Virus record (IMG/VR): IMGVR_UViG_2698536687_000007
Direction: 5' to 3' (one strand)
Length of the DNA: 25,676 nucleotides
Origin: a virus
Lineage: Duplodnaviria > Heunggongvirae > Uroviricota > Caudoviricetes
The notes beneath the pieces were generated by a model. That model was not told the DNA's origin. It worked only from the letters and a program-made list of their open reading frames with translations, and did not search any database. Each line of letters begins with the position of its first letter. The stretch's first letter is position 1. This document shows positions 12,171-20,927 of the stretch, piece after piece. A program made the translations under genes and the position numbers.

Positions 12171-12326
12171 TTACTCCTCAGGTTCGTAAGCTGTGAAGAC
12201 AGCGACCTCCGTCTGGCCGGTTCGGATTCGTACCTCGCAGAGGTCTTTCCTCGTTACCAGTGCCGTCACTATGACGGTTAAACAGATGACGATCAGGGCG
12301 ATTAACATCGCCTTTTGCTGCTTCAT
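12171..12326 (-). CDS. hokD: Hok-family small membrane toxin (51 aa)
   Basis: Not in the ORF track. Reverse-complement reading gives MKQQKAMLIALIVICLTVIVTALVTRKDLCEVRIRTGQTEVAVFTAYEPEE-stop, directly 3' of relE. Confidence 0.75.
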   Translation of the reverse strand: MKQQKAMLIALIVICLTVIVTALVTRKDLCEVRIRTGQTEVAVFTAYEPEE

Positions 12327-14179: not shown

Positions 14180-15620
14180 ATCTACCCTATGAATGGATAT
14201 GCACTCAACCGAATCGATCTTGGTTTCAATCTTTTTTATCGGGATCAGGCTTCTTTTTAGGTAACTTCGGGGGCTTAACTTGCTGATGACTTTGCGTTCG
14301 GCGCGTAAGCCAGGGATGGTCAGCTTTAGGTTTAACATAGTATTTTGAGCGTAAATCAATACGGGCATTATCCACTCGTTCATGGACACTCTTTTCATCA
14401 TCCAGTGGTATAGGCTCCGGGCCATCAACATACTTTTCCCAGCCCAGCGCTTTCCCGTCATACAGAACGTTAATTTCACCGTCAAAGTTCTCGCATACAG
14501 TAACAACCGAATGCCTAAGTCGATATCCCCGGCCCTCACTGCGTACCTGAAACGCACTGCTTTTGTACTGGAAAGTGAGATTTTTAGACAGAACGCGCTT
14601 CGCCTGTAGGCTGAAGATATAACCCAGTTCCTCTTCAGAATGGTGCACATCAAGATGAGCATTATCAGTAGTACGAGGCGACGTAGCGAACCGGTTGTTA
14701 TAGGCTTCAATAAAGGTCGGCAACCATGCATTTGCTGTTTCAATATCACTGATATTCTGAAGCCGCATTTCTTTGACCAGCCTGTCCTGTAGTGTCTGAT
14801 TGGCGCGCTCTACCCGCCCTTTTGCCTGCGGGCTGTTGGCATGGATTGGCTCGATGCCCAGTGTCTTTATCGCACGAGTGAACTGGGTCAGCTCACCTTC
14901 CCGCTCTGGGTTATTTACCCTGAATATACTGTGTCTATCAGAGTAGAGAGCGAGCGGTACGCCATGATCATTAAGGTAACCCCGGAGGGTTTCCATGTAA
15001 GCCCGGGTTGTTTCAGCAGGCACAAAACGCAACGCCATCAACGCACTGGTGGCATCATCAATGAAAACGATCAGTGTACATCTGGGGCCTCGATTTTCAA
15101 ACCAGTCATGAGGTGAGCCATCAATCTGGATCAGTTCACCGTAAGATGGTCGTCGCATGCGGCGTTGATATATACGGGCAATTTTACGACGGCGTTCACG
15201 CCATAACCCCTCTTCTATCATCCACTTTCTGAGAGTTTCAACGGATAAAGATAAACCGTGTATCTCGCGCAATTTTTCGCACGCAAACGTAGGTCCAAAA
15301 TCAGCGTAACGGCCTTTGAGGAGTGAAATTACTGTTGCTCTGAATTCAGTAGAAAAGGAATTATTAGGACGCTTTCCACGTCGGTGGGAAACCAGACCAG
15401 AAGGCCCTTCATTTCTATACCGTTGCACCAGACGTTTAACCTGCCGAATAGAAATGCCAATGCGTGCCGCAGCTTGTTCCTGAATAATCTGAAGTCGGTG
15501 GAGTTCCTTATGACTCATCGTAACAGTCTCTTTGATCATGAAAAATCCCCCAGAGAATTGTCTGGGGACATTTTAGAATGGTTCAAAGGGGACATTACAG
15601 CTTGGTGTTAACAATAGCCT
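14180..15620 (-). mobile_element. Insertion sequence carrying a single DDE transposase; ends not resolved
   Basis: One 437-aa transposase ORF (14226..15539) with no neighbouring phage homologs; I could not identify clean terminal inverted repeats by eye, so the boundaries are approximate. Confidence 0.4.
14226..15539 (-). CDS. DDE-type transposase (HTH plus integrase-core rve-like domain; ISNCY/IS481-like), 437 aa
   Basis: N-terminal HTH-like region (IGISIRQVKRLVQRY) and a central region with spaced acidic residues (LIQIDGSPHDWF..., ALYSDRHSIF..., AKGRVERANQTLQ) typical of DDE/rve transposases; lysine-rich C-terminus. Confidence 0.7.
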   Translation of the reverse strand: MIKETVTMSHKELHRLQIIQEQAAARIGISIRQVKRLVQRYRNEGPSGLVSHRRGKRPNNSFSTEFRATVISLLKGRYADFGPTFACEKLREIHGLSLSVETLRKWMIEEGLWRERRRKIARIYQRRMRRPSYGELIQIDGSPHDWFENRGPRCTLIVFIDDATSALMALRFVPAETTRAYMETLRGYLNDHGVPLALYSDRHSIFRVNNPEREGELTQFTRAIKTLGIEPIHANSPQAKGRVERANQTLQDRLVKEMRLQNISDIETANAWLPTFIEAYNNRFATSPRTTDNAHLDVHHSEEELGYIFSLQAKRVLSKNLTFQYKSSAFQVRSEGRGYRLRHSVVTVCENFDGEINVLYDGKALGWEKYVDGPEPIPLDDEKSVHERVDNARIDLRSKYYVKPKADHPWLTRRTQSHQQVKPPKLPKKKPDPDKKD

Positions 15621-15873
15621 GCTTCTCCGTGCCTTTCGGCACGTAAGAGGCTAACCTACATGTGTCTAGCATGAAATTGGCCTCAGATTAATGTTAAGCG
15701 TCTTGCAGGACGCGTAATGTTAACTGGGGCTTTTCTCTATCTGCCGTTGGTGTCCATGCCCGAGGCAGATAGCCTCAAGCACCCGCAGTCATTCTACTTA
15801 ACTAAGATTTCCCCGCAAACCGTTTTTGTCCAGCACAGTAAATATCCAACTAAACCAATGGAGTTCGCTGTAT

Positions 15874-16092: not shown

Positions 16093-17205
16093 ACCTCAAT
16101 TTGGCCGGACATATAAATATCTAAACCAGAAAAAATCACTTACATAGCGTTACAAACTCTTTAGTCTAAAGGTTCATCGTAAAACATTCCCCATACTTAT
16201 CAGTCCGTTCCGCGCCAGGTAGCTCATTGCCTTATCTGGCAACCTGTAATCAGGTTTCCGCTTTTTCAGTTGGCTGGTCGTTTAACCGACATAGTTAATC
16301 CATTAATCTAGTTGCCGGATGTTGGTGGATTTTCGCGTTTTAGTTGTTCATAAAAGTGCACAGCTTTAACCAGTTCTTCTGATGTAACTGGGACTGGTGA
16401 GGCAGTGAATAAGGCCTGAATTTGATAGTTCGGCCTGTCGTTACAATCCTCTTTTTTCGGTACATATTTCCAGTCACCAGACCACTACTTCCCCTGAAAG
16501 TCCGTAACGCCTTTTTTCACGTAGCGATATCGCCATGCCACTGGTTTTGCTTGCCCCGCCGTTTCATGCCCTTCCTGATAATTAATCTCGCTCATTCATC
16601 GCCCCACTCATCACAATATGCTTCGACCGGAGTTTTTCCCGCTTCATAGTCATCACGCTAGGATTCGACATCAGCAGCACTTCCACCGCGTAACTCACCA
16701 TAGTCCATTAATAGTTCATCCCGCTCTTCAAAACTGATGTTATATTTAGCTGAACAAAAATCAGCCACTTTGTTCTTCCTCATCGTCTTTTATTTCGTGG
16801 TATGAGTAATTGCAGTAGTTAAAGAAAATTTCTTATGCTCCGTCATGAATTTCCTCAGGTGTTGCGTCATCGTCCACTTCGAATACATCCTCAAAATCTC
16901 CACCAGCTATTCCCGTTTCAATAATAATTTTGAACTTTCGCATTTCACTACCGCCCTTTCGGGCGGCCTCCTGATGTTCTGAGGGTGCAGAAATCCATCC
17001 GGTTAAGGATTAAATTTTATTTACAGAACTGAATTTAATTATTCAGATATACGTATCTGTAGCCTTACGAATCTACTCACTGGATGCCTCTTTCATAAAA
17101 ATAATCCAGTGGGTTTTATCGTTTTTTCCCTGTTCGTTGACAGATAACAGGTTTTCTGTCTGTCAGTGCCAGAATCTGGCTTACCGGTATTTGCGTTTCA
17201 TTCCA

Positions 17206-17562
17206 TTAAAAAATCAGAACGCCGTGCGGCCTCAACACCCGAAAGGCTTCTTTAAATCTCTGTCGCGAATCATCACGCCAGGCATCTTTATTCAGCCGTC
17301 CATATTTCTTTCCCATCCAGGCGTTATCACCAACACTCTCAAGATGCGGAGGGTCTAATACAACCATCGAAAAAGATGCGTCTGCAAATGATAATGCACG
17401 AAAATCTGCGATAATGTCAGGGCTGATAATCAAGCGTCTCCCATTGCGTAATGTGTATCCTTCTTTTCTGATATCGCTGAATATCGCCCGTTCGTCAGAC
17501 TTATCGAACCAGAACATGCGGCTGCCACAGCACATATCAAGAATGGTTGCCGGTGCACTCAC
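17206..17562 (-). CDS. SAM-dependent methyltransferase-like protein, probably C-terminally truncated (118 aa)
   Basis: Motif-I-like LDMCCGSR and a DPPH motif (VVLDPPHL) resembling the DPPY/F motif IV of amino-methyltransferases; short for a methyltransferase and followed by ~1 kb without long ORFs. Confidence 0.4.
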   Translation of the reverse strand: MSAPATILDMCCGSRMFWFDKSDERAIFSDIRKEGYTLRNGRRLIISPDIIADFRALSFADASFSMVVLDPPHLESVGDNAWMGKKYGRLNKDAWRDDSRQRFKEAFRVLRPHGVLIF

Positions 17563-17981
17563 TGCGCCACGTCCTGAAAATTACCCTGATAGAAAGCCAG
17601 TATGCGCTGCATAACTTCGCTCTTCCGGCACTCGCGACAGATTATGTTTAGGCGACTGTCGTAGCGACGTATTTCTCCGTCAGGTGATGACCAGATAAGG
17701 TCCGGATCAACCACAGCAGGTTTCTTCACCTTTGCCCTCGAGAGTTTTTTGCGGGCGTTTTGCCAGTCCTTACGCGCCTGTTCAGAGGGGAATAACCCGT
17801 AGCCGGAGTTGTATACATCGCCACTGGCTACCAGCTCTCTGGCAAGAACGCTCATCAGATATCTAGTCGCACCTGTTTTAGCTTCCAGTTGCCGTAACGT
17901 CTCACGGCCGCTCTGGCGCACGAGTTCCACCACCTGCCATTTAATTTTTTCCCGCTCTTCTTGTGTAAAAACTTTTGCCAC
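17559..17981 (-). CDS. Hypothetical prophage protein (140 aa), translationally coupled to the methyltransferase-like ORF
   Basis: Minus ORF; ATGA overlap with downstream ORF at 17559-17562; basic, with a CRECRK motif; no family assignment. Confidence 0.4.
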   Translation of the reverse strand: MAKVFTQEEREKIKWQVVELVRQSGRETLRQLEAKTGATRYLMSVLARELVASGDVYNSGYGLFPSEQARKDWQNARKKLSRAKVKKPAVVDPDLIWSSPDGEIRRYDSRLNIICRECRKSEVMQRILAFYQGNFQDVAQ

Positions 17982-18021
17982 AAGTCCCCCTTAAAATTAC
18001 CTCATGACCTGAAATCAACAC

Positions 18022-19041
18022 TTATCCTCTGAAACCAGGCGGAATTTCTGTATCCGGTTCAGAAATATGATTAACACAACGCTGTACAGGTGAACGTCCC
18101 AGGCGGATGACCAGTTCGTCCCATTTTTCGCGGAGCTTTGACGGGCTCATGATGTTTTTTACCCAGAATGGATCTCGCTGAACCCGACCAAACATTTCGC
18201 AAATTTGTCTGTGGCTTCTGCCATCCAGCATCCGCATTGTGCGCACGTCATTGGCCCAGGCAGTCCAGTTAGGCTCTTTTGGTCGCATGATCTCGCCATC
18301 ATCACTGGCTGCCTGTTCGTAGAGACCCACGATCCGCCCCCAGATCCACTGCGCACACGCCAAATCCTCCCTGCTACCCCACTGGCGTTTTTTCGCACTA
18401 AACACAACCGCGTCGGAGTTCCGGGTTAAAAAATCCTGTTCAGTCGTCTGCGGGTCCGGTTGCGAAGCTTCCGGACGAAAAGTGTTTTTATTCTCTGTAG
18501 TAATCTCTGTTGTATTCTCTGTAAGATCATCAGGCCATTTTGACCCGATGACATTGGGTCGTTTTGAACCAATGGAGCGTTTCATTTTGACCTCTTCCAT
18601 CGTGTCATTTTGACCTGATGGAGCGGCGCATTTTGAACCGATGGATTCGCTCAATTTGCCACCATCTAAAAGCTCGCTCCCATAGTTGATCGTGTAGAAA
18701 TTGGTCATATCGCGCTTTGATTTATTGAGCTTTTCACAACGCAAAAGCCCCAGCGTTTTCAGACTTGCAAACGCGCGCTTTAACGTTGACTCTGACCAGA
18801 ATGGGAACTGTTCCAGCCATTGTTCCGTTGTGTTATAAATCCAGCGAACACCATCACATTCCATGCCGGAGTTGGTATCTCTCAACCAGTAGTGCAGTTG
18901 TTGCAAAACAATGGCTTCGTTTAAGCCAATTTTCATTGCCAGCTGCGTGTTTATAACCAGTGGGCGTTCAGCAAAAAGAAGGCTCATAATTCCATCCAGC
19001 TTTTTGTTGGTATTGCTGTCGATACGCAAGTTTGAAAGCAA
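18022..19041 (-). CDS. Phage replication initiator / replisome organizer (lambda O-like role), 339 aa
   Basis: Position downstream of the cro-like dicC; contains the internal iteron array at 18536-18672, encoding repeated SIGSK peptide motifs; start may be the internal Met at 18987. Confidence 0.65.
   Translation of the reverse strand: MLSNLRIDSNTNKKLDGIMSLLFAERPLVINTQLAMKIGLNEAIVLQQLHYWLRDTNSGMECDGVRWIYNTTEQWLEQFPFWSESTLKRAFASLKTLGLLRCEKLNKSKRDMTNFYTINYGSELLDGGKLSESIGSKCAAPSGQNDTMEEVKMKRSIGSKRPNVIGSKWPDDLTENTTEITTENKNTFRPEASQPDPQTTEQDFLTRNSDAVVFSAKKRQWGSREDLACAQWIWGRIVGLYEQAASDDGEIMRPKEPNWTAWANDVRTMRMLDGRSHRQICEMFGRVQRDPFWVKNIMSPSKLREKWDELVIRLGRSPVQRCVNHISEPDTEIPPGFRG
18536..18672. repeat. 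Iteron array (5-6 direct repeats, ~23-bp period, consensus ~CATTTTGA(A/C)C(N)GATGGAG), candidate replication origin inside the initiator gene
   Basis: Repeat starts at ~18536, 18560, 18583, 18606, 18629, 18652; flanked at 18491-18523 by three copies of (T/A)TCTCTGT(A/T) at 12-bp spacing. Confidence 0.6.
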
Positions 19042-19150
19042 TTGCTTTTTCTATAAGTTCGTCAGTTTCACGATCCACTACGGCAGGATCAGCAAAAAGC
19101 AGTCCGGACTCCACCACATCGCCATATTCTTTGTTTAACCCGGCGATCAT
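18968..19150 (-). CDS. Hypothetical small protein (about 60 aa) between the cro-like gene and the replication gene
   Basis: ORF 18968..19189; internal ATG at 19150 forms an ATGA overlap with the dicC stop; overlaps the annotated start of the replication ORF, so one of the starts is mis-assigned. Confidence 0.25.
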   Translation of the reverse strand: MIAGLNKEYGDVVESGLLFADPAVVDRETDELIEKAIAFKLAYRQQYQQKAGWNYEPSFC

Positions 19151-19338
19151 GCACGTGATGCTTTTTCCGTCAGTAATTTCACGATACAACCTGAAATCAT
19201 TAATCCGGATAGACGCATCGCGCGACCTTCGGGAACTAAATCCCCTTTCCAGCTATAAAGCGAAGCCAAACGAATACCTGCTGCTTGTGCAAGTTTTGTT
19301 TTTGAACCGAAATACAAAAGAGCGTCAGTTTTAAGCAT
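19147..19338 (-). CDS. dicC: Cro-like small HTH regulator, DicC/YdaS-like
   Basis: MLKTDALLYFGSKTKLAQAAGIRLASLYSWKGDLVPEGRAMRL...; divergent from dicA across an operator-containing intergenic region. Confidence 0.7.
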   Translation of the reverse strand: MLKTDALLYFGSKTKLAQAAGIRLASLYSWKGDLVPEGRAMRLSGLMISGCIVKLLTEKASRA

Positions 19339-20869: not shown

Positions 20870-20927
20870 TTTCTGGTGACGTTTGGCGGTATCAGTTTTA
20901 CTCCGTGACTGCTCTGCCGCCCTTTTT
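20870..20927 (+). ncRNA. dicF: DicF small regulatory RNA (ftsZ-targeting sRNA) with its intrinsic terminator
   Basis: TTTCTGGTGACGTTTGGCGGTATCAGTTTTACTCCGTGACTGCTCTGCCGCCCTTTTT matches the DicF sequence as I recall it; GC stem plus T-run at the 3' end; sits between ydfC and dicB. Confidence 0.8.

Follow-up and report, generated by a model that had tools for sequence, protein, structure and literature searches.

The stretch of DNA recorded as IMG/VR virus record IMGVR_UViG_2698536687_000007 (25,676 nucleotides; referred to below, at its full length, as the window) is, by its gene content, a copy of Qin/Kim, the defective or cryptic lambdoid prophage of Escherichia coli. Two adjoining genes on its minus strand lie at the distal end of the prophage's early-right (replication) operon, and they very probably represent an intact relative of the lambda Ren protein, belonging to the DUF977 family, followed by the fossil of a small methyltransferase gene. 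Read from its sequence, the latter is a pseudogene, doubly disabled by a nonsense codon and a frameshift. A preliminary description of the same DNA had placed two minus-strand open reading frames (ORFs) of 140 and 118 amino acids here, sharing 4 nucleotides at 17559-17562, and both the coordinates and the overlap proved accurate. It had, however, spelled the overlap as ATGA, whereas the coding strand actually reads GTGA, made up of a GTG start (17562-17560) and a TGA stop (17561-17559); both ORFs begin with GTG. That the two are real genes and not chance frames follows from their profile matches, namely 101.5 bits against a cut-off of 22.1 bits for the upstream protein with Pfam PF06163 (DUF977), and an E value of 6.7e-58 for the downstream one with PHROG 954. 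The features of the two genes, in the order of transcription, are the following.

17985-17992 (-), Shine-Dalgarno-like sequence AAGGGGGA, 4 nucleotides upstream of the DUF977 GTG, read from the sequence
17559-17981 (-), intact DUF977/Ren-like gene, 140 amino acids, RefSeq WP_001151262.1 "DUF977 family protein"
17981-17979 and 17561-17559 (-), GTG start and TGA stop of the DUF977 gene, read from the sequence
17570-17575 (-), weakened Shine-Dalgarno sequence AGGACG, within the end of the DUF977 gene; AGGAGG in intact alleles according to the junction comparison
17073-17562 (-), full methyltransferase pseudogene, 162 amino acids once both lesions are repaired
17206-17562 (-), 118-amino-acid ORF, RefSeq WP_001310834.1 "class I SAM-dependent methyltransferase"
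17562-17560 and 17208-17206 (-), GTG start and TAA stop of the 118-amino-acid ORF, read from the sequence
17206-17208 (-), premature stop TAA at codon 119; AAA in relatives, the Lys being invariant across the family
17122-17127 (-), run of six A, five in intact alleles; a +1 frameshift that leads to a second stop at 17116-17118

A doubly disabled methyltransferase gene

The match of the 118-amino-acid ORF to PHROG 954 covers profile positions 52-165 of 229, and among the PADLOC profiles the ORF is recognized by PDLC03288 "MTase_II" (Type II methyltransferase, E 4.5e-45) and PDLC03730 "oMTase" (orphan methyltransferase, E 2.8e-33). The motifs of an S-adenosylmethionine (SAM)-dependent methyltransferase noticed earlier in this ORF, LDMCCGSR and VVLDPPH, are indeed present and are those of the class I fold: LDMCCGS (motif I), D30 and DPPH at residues 70-73 are invariant in the family and are retained here together with helix D and most of strand 5, that is, the N-terminal three quarters of the enzyme. 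Since full-length enterobacterial members, including those of E. coli, Salmonella and Klebsiella, have 155-167 amino acids, and since homology extends past the stop, the earlier suggestion that the ORF is a truncated phage orphan-type methyltransferase, as opposed to a full-length member of some other family, is borne out.

Beyond the TAA the window's reading frame still aligns with the relatives (...LIF, the stop, and then WNETQIPVSQILALTDRKPVICQRTGKK), and after a shift of one base the alignment carries on to their very end (...NDKTHWIIFMKEASSE before the terminal stop). The frameshift falls after codon 146, in the run of six A (GGGAAAAAACGAT), and the removal of one A (GGGAAAAACGAT) restores the reading GKNDKTHW found in the intact allele of locus L005. 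When, in addition, the TAA is changed to a sense codon, the product has 162 amino acids, ends in ...KNDKTHWIIFMKEASSE and is colinear with an intact relative of the same length (P0002). Because homology continues beyond both the stop and the frameshift, the pseudogene is taken to span 17073-17562.

What the truncation removes can be gauged from an AlphaFold2 (AF2) model of P0002, which was built on a diverse alignment and reached a predicted local distance difference test (pLDDT) score of 93.9; a shallow alignment of sequences with 75-93% identity gave a pLDDT of 63, and that model was discarded. In the retained model strand 5 occupies residues 110-121, helix E 127-131, strand 6 140-144 and strand 7 150-156. 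The 118-amino-acid product, ending at residue 118, is without the end of strand 5, helix E, strands 6 and 7 and the invariant residues K119 and P138, and does not contain the complete seven-stranded sheet of the class I fold. The coverage of PDLC03288 tells the same, with positions 3-122 of 169 matched by the window ORF and 3-163 by P0002.

Is the gene merely shortened, or has it been decaying? K119, whose codon is a stop in the window, is one of 13 positions invariant in a 60-sequence alignment spanning 40-60% identity. The window allele furthermore departs from 40 intact relatives at six of the 66 columns that are invariant among them (C39R, D40N, P58S, F69L, R76S and G102R; F69L adjoins the catalytic DPPH). 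When the intact sequences are subjected to a leave-one-out test, such violations average 0.375 per sequence and never exceed 2. A sister Qin allele in strain 13E0767 (98.8% identical), which the Prokaryotic Genome Annotation Pipeline (PGAP) flags as "frameshifted; internal stop", carries the same stop and the same frameshift and yet still has R76 and L99, and the replacements therefore went on after inactivation. The codon changes of the window lineage comprise 15 synonymous and 16 non-synonymous ones; the pairwise ratio of non-synonymous to synonymous substitution rates (dN/dS) among other alleles is 0.11-0.37, and the comparison lends modest support to a relaxation of constraint. Independent losses of the gene are found in O157:H7 strain SS52, by a stop at W95 (L007 4003-4476), and in phage HannyBb, where a deletion has left a remnant of about 57 N-terminal residues (L009 3920-4153), and from phage Tritos the gene is wholly absent. 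More generally, lambdoid elements of E. coli seem to have lost this methyltransferase gene again and again.

Family and probable substrate of the methyltransferase

The family to which the fossil belongs is a large one, with 6651 protein-database homologues at E<=1e-10 and at least 1279 clusters at 50% identity, and tblastn finds members in phages of Streptococcus, Vibrio, Acinetobacter, Listeria, Gordonia and others. Intact E. coli alleles (e.g. WP_001275735.1, 157 amino acids, and WP_001275732.1, 164 amino acids) are 77-87% identical to the window copy, and the enzyme of Erwinia phage vB_EhrS_49 (AXH43497.1) is 71% identical to it. The window copy has D9, G13, D30, R32, the DPPH motif and the GTGA-coupled GTG start in common with the intact E. 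coli alleles, and differs from them in the stop at codon 119, the frameshift, the six replacements at invariant positions and in having AGGACG for AGGAGG. In a subset of the family with roughly 248 amino acids (P0008, P0076 and about 30 others, from Leclercia, Klebsiella, Citrobacter and Enterobacter), the C-terminus is prolonged by a conserved stretch of about 90 amino acids (...ELESLLLVD...HHQRRL.HHINRMWLEKMPVP...).

The comparison with phage Dam enzymes that had been proposed for this ORF does not hold up. At E values up to 1, the Pfam families matching it are Methyltransf_11 (21.6 bits against a cut-off of 21.2 bits) and Methyltransf_25, with no match to Dam, MethyltransfD12 or N6_Mtase, and the same is true of its intact relatives; judged by sequence, it is not a member of the Dam family. 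Enzymes of the T4 Dam/MethyltransfD12 (PF02086) and phage Dam (PF05869) types are likewise orphan, phage-borne and SAM-dependent, with a DPPx amino-methyltransferase motif, and their presumed anti-restriction role is the same. Unlike them, however, the window family has motif I in front of DPPH, is far smaller and has no target-recognition domain; the AF2 model is a pared-down Rossmann fold with only three helices.

What, then, would an intact member act on? Enzymes in which strand 4 is followed by a DPPH motif are methyltransferases of exocyclic amino groups, and a genome position among the early phage genes is typical of anti-restriction methyltransferases. The motif, the phage context and the annotation-derived PADLOC profiles, which go back to REBASE, point to DNA as the probable substrate. 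Among 60 family members Methyltransf_11 was found in 50 and N6_N4_Mtase, weakly, in 11. Searches of Protein Data Bank (PDB) sequences with an intact methyltransferase and with two family profiles returned nothing specific, the best match being the generic PH0226 (E 8.5e-5); literature searches combining the Qin prophage with methyltransferase brought up irrelevant papers only, and those for "DPPH motif" and for the RefSeq accessions brought up none.

A counterpart of lambda Ren

The upstream partner had been described as a protein without assignable family, a view that can be abandoned, for it matches Pfam DUF977 over the entire profile (positions 1-134 of 134, E 5.1e-29) and also PHROG 142, "Ren-like exclusion protein" (E 1.6e-47), together with lambda Ren. 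It is a typical intact member of the DUF977 (PF06163)/LygF family with no notable difference, and is 87-96% identical to proteins annotated as LygF or DUF977 in Rac-type and other lambdoid phages of E. coli and Shigella; "LygF" and "Ren-like exclusion protein" are the names it bears in phage records. The family is a narrow one, comprising 869 proteins in 5.8 billion, essentially from E. coli, Shigella and Salmonella.

Lambda Ren (NC_001416; NP_040633.1) matches PHROG 142 with an E value of 1.6e-41, and the profile covers both Ren and the window protein nearly end to end, even though the two differ in length (96 vs 140 amino acids). A direct BLASTP comparison between them brings out a common C-terminal motif, N-x-x-x-x-E-C-R-x-S-x-x-M-x-R-x-L-A-x-Y (E 2e-6; NIICRECRKSEVMQRILAFY vs NLVFKECRQSAAMKRVLAVY). 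A tblastn search with the DUF977 protein at E<=1e-3 did not find lambda Ren, nor does Ren reach the Pfam DUF977 profile. Because the sequence alignment extends only to the C-terminal motif, the link with Ren rests mainly on common PHROG membership and on gene position. As to the latter, lambda has the order O-P-ren, with ren overlapping P by 4 nucleotides, and the window has an O-like gene followed by the DUF977 gene; each of the two genes immediately follows the replication gene(s) within an operon of the pR type. At the level of gene position and PHROG profile, then, the DUF977 gene is the counterpart of lambda ren.

Ren is known from classical genetics to confer resistance to Rex exclusion, and by analogy the DUF977 protein may have an anti-exclusion function. 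For residues 1-82 of the window protein there is a match with a PHROG named "DNA binding protein", and Ren gives weak matches to helix-turn-helix models of the MarR/Crp type and to a MarR-family regulator PHROG. The DUF977 gene probably encodes a DNA-binding early protein of the winged-helix type. A literature search for DUF977 turned up a single paper, which does no more than list the name, and no experiment that defines a function; one for LygF led mostly to fish lysozymes and to gene names from the Salmonella sdf region, with no functional study, and a PDB sequence search returned nothing specific. The idea that the DUF977 protein could stand in for a helicase loader was considered and rejected, as YdaV, which is DnaC-like, co-occurs with DUF977 in locus L005.

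The gene junction and how the operon might be read

The methyltransferase GTG is preceded at a distance of 7 nucleotides by AGGACG, and this internal Shine-Dalgarno sequence, combined with the overlap of stop and start codons, is the architecture expected of translational coupling. The GTGA junction is conserved in loci L004, L005, L006 and L007, and L005 and L006 have intact pairs joined by it. An intact DUF977-methyltransferase pair follows the single O-like gene in prophage E01, and another follows a module of YdaU, YdaV (DnaC-like) and DUF1627 in strain 2014C-3599. In O157:H7, the methyltransferase gene is GTGA-coupled to an unrelated gene of PHROG 614. Of 5426 E. coli genomes, 4213 have a match to the 1.2-kb region holding the DUF977 gene and only 901 have one to the methyltransferase segment. 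Because the methyltransferase is far more widespread and has other partners, the two genes are most plausibly just neighbours within one early operon; an obligate partnership between them was rejected because of their distribution (the wide spread of the methyltransferase family against the narrow one of DUF977, the O157:H7 arrangement and phage Tritos).

The following course of events is inferred. Once repression by DicA is lifted, the rightward operon would be transcribed, and the DUF977 protein would be made from its own strong Shine-Dalgarno sequence, to serve as a small DNA-binding early protein that, by analogy with Ren, possibly counters exclusion. Ribosomes terminating at its TGA could reinitiate at the overlapping GTG, which in the window would yield at most the incomplete 118-amino-acid fragment; judging by the structural model, this fragment should be inactive and should add no methylation to the host methylome. 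In intact relatives the same step would deliver a minimal class I SAM-dependent amino-methyltransferase of 155-165 amino acids with the DPPH catalytic motif. The REBASE-derived profiles and the motif suggest that such an enzyme most likely methylates phage DNA (at N6 of adenine or N4 of cytosine) early in infection, which would let the phage evade host restriction.

Weighing the alternatives

Several points weigh against the reading of the locus as an intact Ren relative next to a fossil methyltransferase gene. In most genomes RefSeq treats the 118-amino-acid ORF like any other protein (WP_001310834.1), and about 380 complete genomes retain the identical allele, so that the fragment may conceivably have a residual role. 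The non-synonymous excess is modest and mixes the time before inactivation with the time after it; direct similarity to Ren, by BLASTP and hhalign alike, is confined to the C-terminal 20-23 residues; the fold search gives only generic class I methyltransferases, RNA and small-molecule enzymes included; and literature searches found no experimental function for either the methyltransferase family or DUF977. Could the 118-amino-acid product then be a shortened functional protein under selection, which might bind SAM as a module, act as a regulator or be the dominant-negative partner of another methyltransferase? The presence of the identical allele in hundreds of E. coli genomes, in which PGAP usually calls a normal coding sequence, would agree with this, as would the retention of motif I, D30 and DPPH and of the start-stop overlap with the upstream gene. 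Yet a wide distribution also fits the inheritance of an old cryptic prophage, and the second, downstream lesion, the six changes of invariant residues, the weakened Shine-Dalgarno sequence, the removal of helix E, strands 6-7 of the core sheet, K119 and P138, the decay of neighbouring genes and the independent loss of the same gene in three other lineages all speak for decay, which makes a selected short protein extremely improbable.

A different possibility concerns the conserved coupling itself, which would be explained if the DUF977 protein and the small methyltransferase formed a two-component enzyme, with the winged-helix DUF977 component supplying the DNA recognition for which the tiny methyltransferase has no domain. 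That two different replication modules are each followed by the pair, its GTGA junction unchanged, and that the methyltransferase has only about 160 amino acids and no extra domain, would suit this proposal; the methyltransferase family is, however, widespread in phages and DUF977 essentially confined to E. coli and its close relatives, the O157:H7 enzyme is coupled to the PHROG 614 gene instead, the two segments differ greatly in their frequency among E. coli genomes, lambda Ren has no methyltransferase neighbour and phage Tritos carries DUF977 alone, and a division of labour of this kind appears very unlikely. The choice of substrate leaves somewhat more room for doubt. The family might consist of RNA methyltransferases (forming m2G or m6A in tRNA or rRNA) or protein-glutamine amino-methyltransferases serving host takeover, with the Qin copy as a dead member, since Trm11, TrmN, RsmC, HemK and an m4,4C rRNA synthase come closest among the solved structures that have a (D/N)PPx motif, and PGAP names one intact allele "TRM11 family methyltransferase". 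The PADLOC profiles for Type II and orphan DNA methyltransferases, which derive from REBASE, nevertheless match over the full length (E 2.4e-71), the Pfam N6_N4_Mtase family is matched by 11 of the 60 members, and the early-gene position is, as a matter of general knowledge, that of anti-restriction enzymes; an RNA or protein substrate is accordingly unlikely, if not negligibly so. A more speculative thought, to which only a slight chance is given, is that the intact methyltransferases, unusually small at about 155 amino acids, have an unconventional activity, methylating DNA without specificity, acting on RNA or depending on the gene coupled to them upstream, and that E. coli prophages may have let the gene decay repeatedly because it is costly to the host.

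Significance of the locus

The locus is unexceptional: the cryptic prophage is well known, and this part of it is already annotated. It has little importance beyond clean annotation. RefSeq lists the doubly disabled WP_001310834.1 as a normal methyltransferase in hundreds of E. coli genomes; as this is a pseudogene, methylome studies and surveys of defence and anti-defence systems should leave it out of their tally of active orphan methyltransferases. The locus also illustrates the stepwise decay of the accessory early genes of Qin, and the link between DUF977 and Ren provides a testable hypothesis (an anti-Rex or anti-exclusion function) for a common prophage gene. If the intact minimal methyltransferases did prove to have an unconventional activity, the window itself would be only a dead witness of such enzymes.

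A single-gene replication module

The gene immediately preceding the pair in the operon is the following.

18022-18987 (-), O-like replication initiator/replisome organiser, 321 amino acids from the RefSeq start, WP_000054512.1

The protein matches PHROG 391, "replication initiation O-like" (E 1.3e-91), and its two halves match "DnaD-like helicase loader / replisome organiser" PHROGs. The preliminary description had remarked that no helicase-loader gene follows the O-like initiator and had regarded this as unusual for a lambdoid replication module. The absence stands, there being no DnaC- or P-like gene between the O-like gene and the DUF977 gene; the judgement that it is unusual does not, for the order YdaT/cII-like gene, single O-like gene and DUF977 gene recurs in phages HannyBb and Tritos and in the apparently intact E. 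coli prophage E01. The missing P/DnaC gene is therefore a property of the module type; this locus is not anomalous in that respect, and there is no sign that it has lost a loader gene. The last 20 residues of the O-like protein (...ISEPDTEIPPGFRG; window 18022-18081 (-)) weakly match the C-terminus of DnaT (NCBIfam, E 0.006) as well as the ends of several phage replication-protein PHROGs; they could be a short motif for docking to the host replisome within a single-gene replication module.

Prophage context

The 25 kb of the window counted from its start, the part used in the search, are 100% identical to E. coli N61, and the 1.2-kb region holding the DUF977 gene occurs at 100% identity in many complete E. 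coli genomes, among them ATCC 8739 and W. The assignment to Qin/Kim is based on the surrounding genes, which comprise dicA, dicC, ydfA-D, dicB, the DicF RNA, relBE, hokD, flxA, cspB/F/I, rrrQ and nohA. The antisense small RNA DicF (window 20871-20922 (+); Rfam RF00039, 76.7 bits) confirms the context of the Qin dicB operon. The early-right operon has the gene order dicC, ydaT-like gene, O-like initiator, Ren-like DUF977 gene and small orphan methyltransferase gene. A promoter scan stayed at chance level, with 5 sites against 4.8 expected, and the terminator-like matches in the scan were weak.

Signs of degradation are found on both sides of the pair. Neither dicC, the cro analogue, nor the ydaT-like gene is complete, and the two lie directly against each other (window 18968-19338 (-)); this region measures 371 bp here as against 736 bp in ATCC 8739, and a deletion of about 365 bp has therefore fused the two, which is further evidence of a degraded early-right operon. 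On the 3' side of the methyltransferase, RefSeq places two pseudogenes within window 16174-16943 (-), one of them a DUF7167 family gene with an internal stop, the other a hypothetical gene that is frameshifted and has an internal stop. An ISNCY element comes after both of these, and several structural genes in this Qin copy are partial.

Two further observations concern neighbouring or related sequences. The 1.2-kb region is found with 100% identity in NZ_CP026085.1 (2306645-2307845), a 4.83-Mb genome labelled E. coli DH5alpha; the Qin prophage of K-12 presumably lacks this region, which would point to a mislabelled strain. Finally, a match covering the whole Rfam model of the sok antitoxin RNA (RF01794, 104 bits) lies at window 15613-15784 (-), just upstream of a partial ISNCY transposase gene and distant from the annotated hokD (about 12171-12326), and may mark a second hok/sok locus, possibly disrupted by the insertion sequence.

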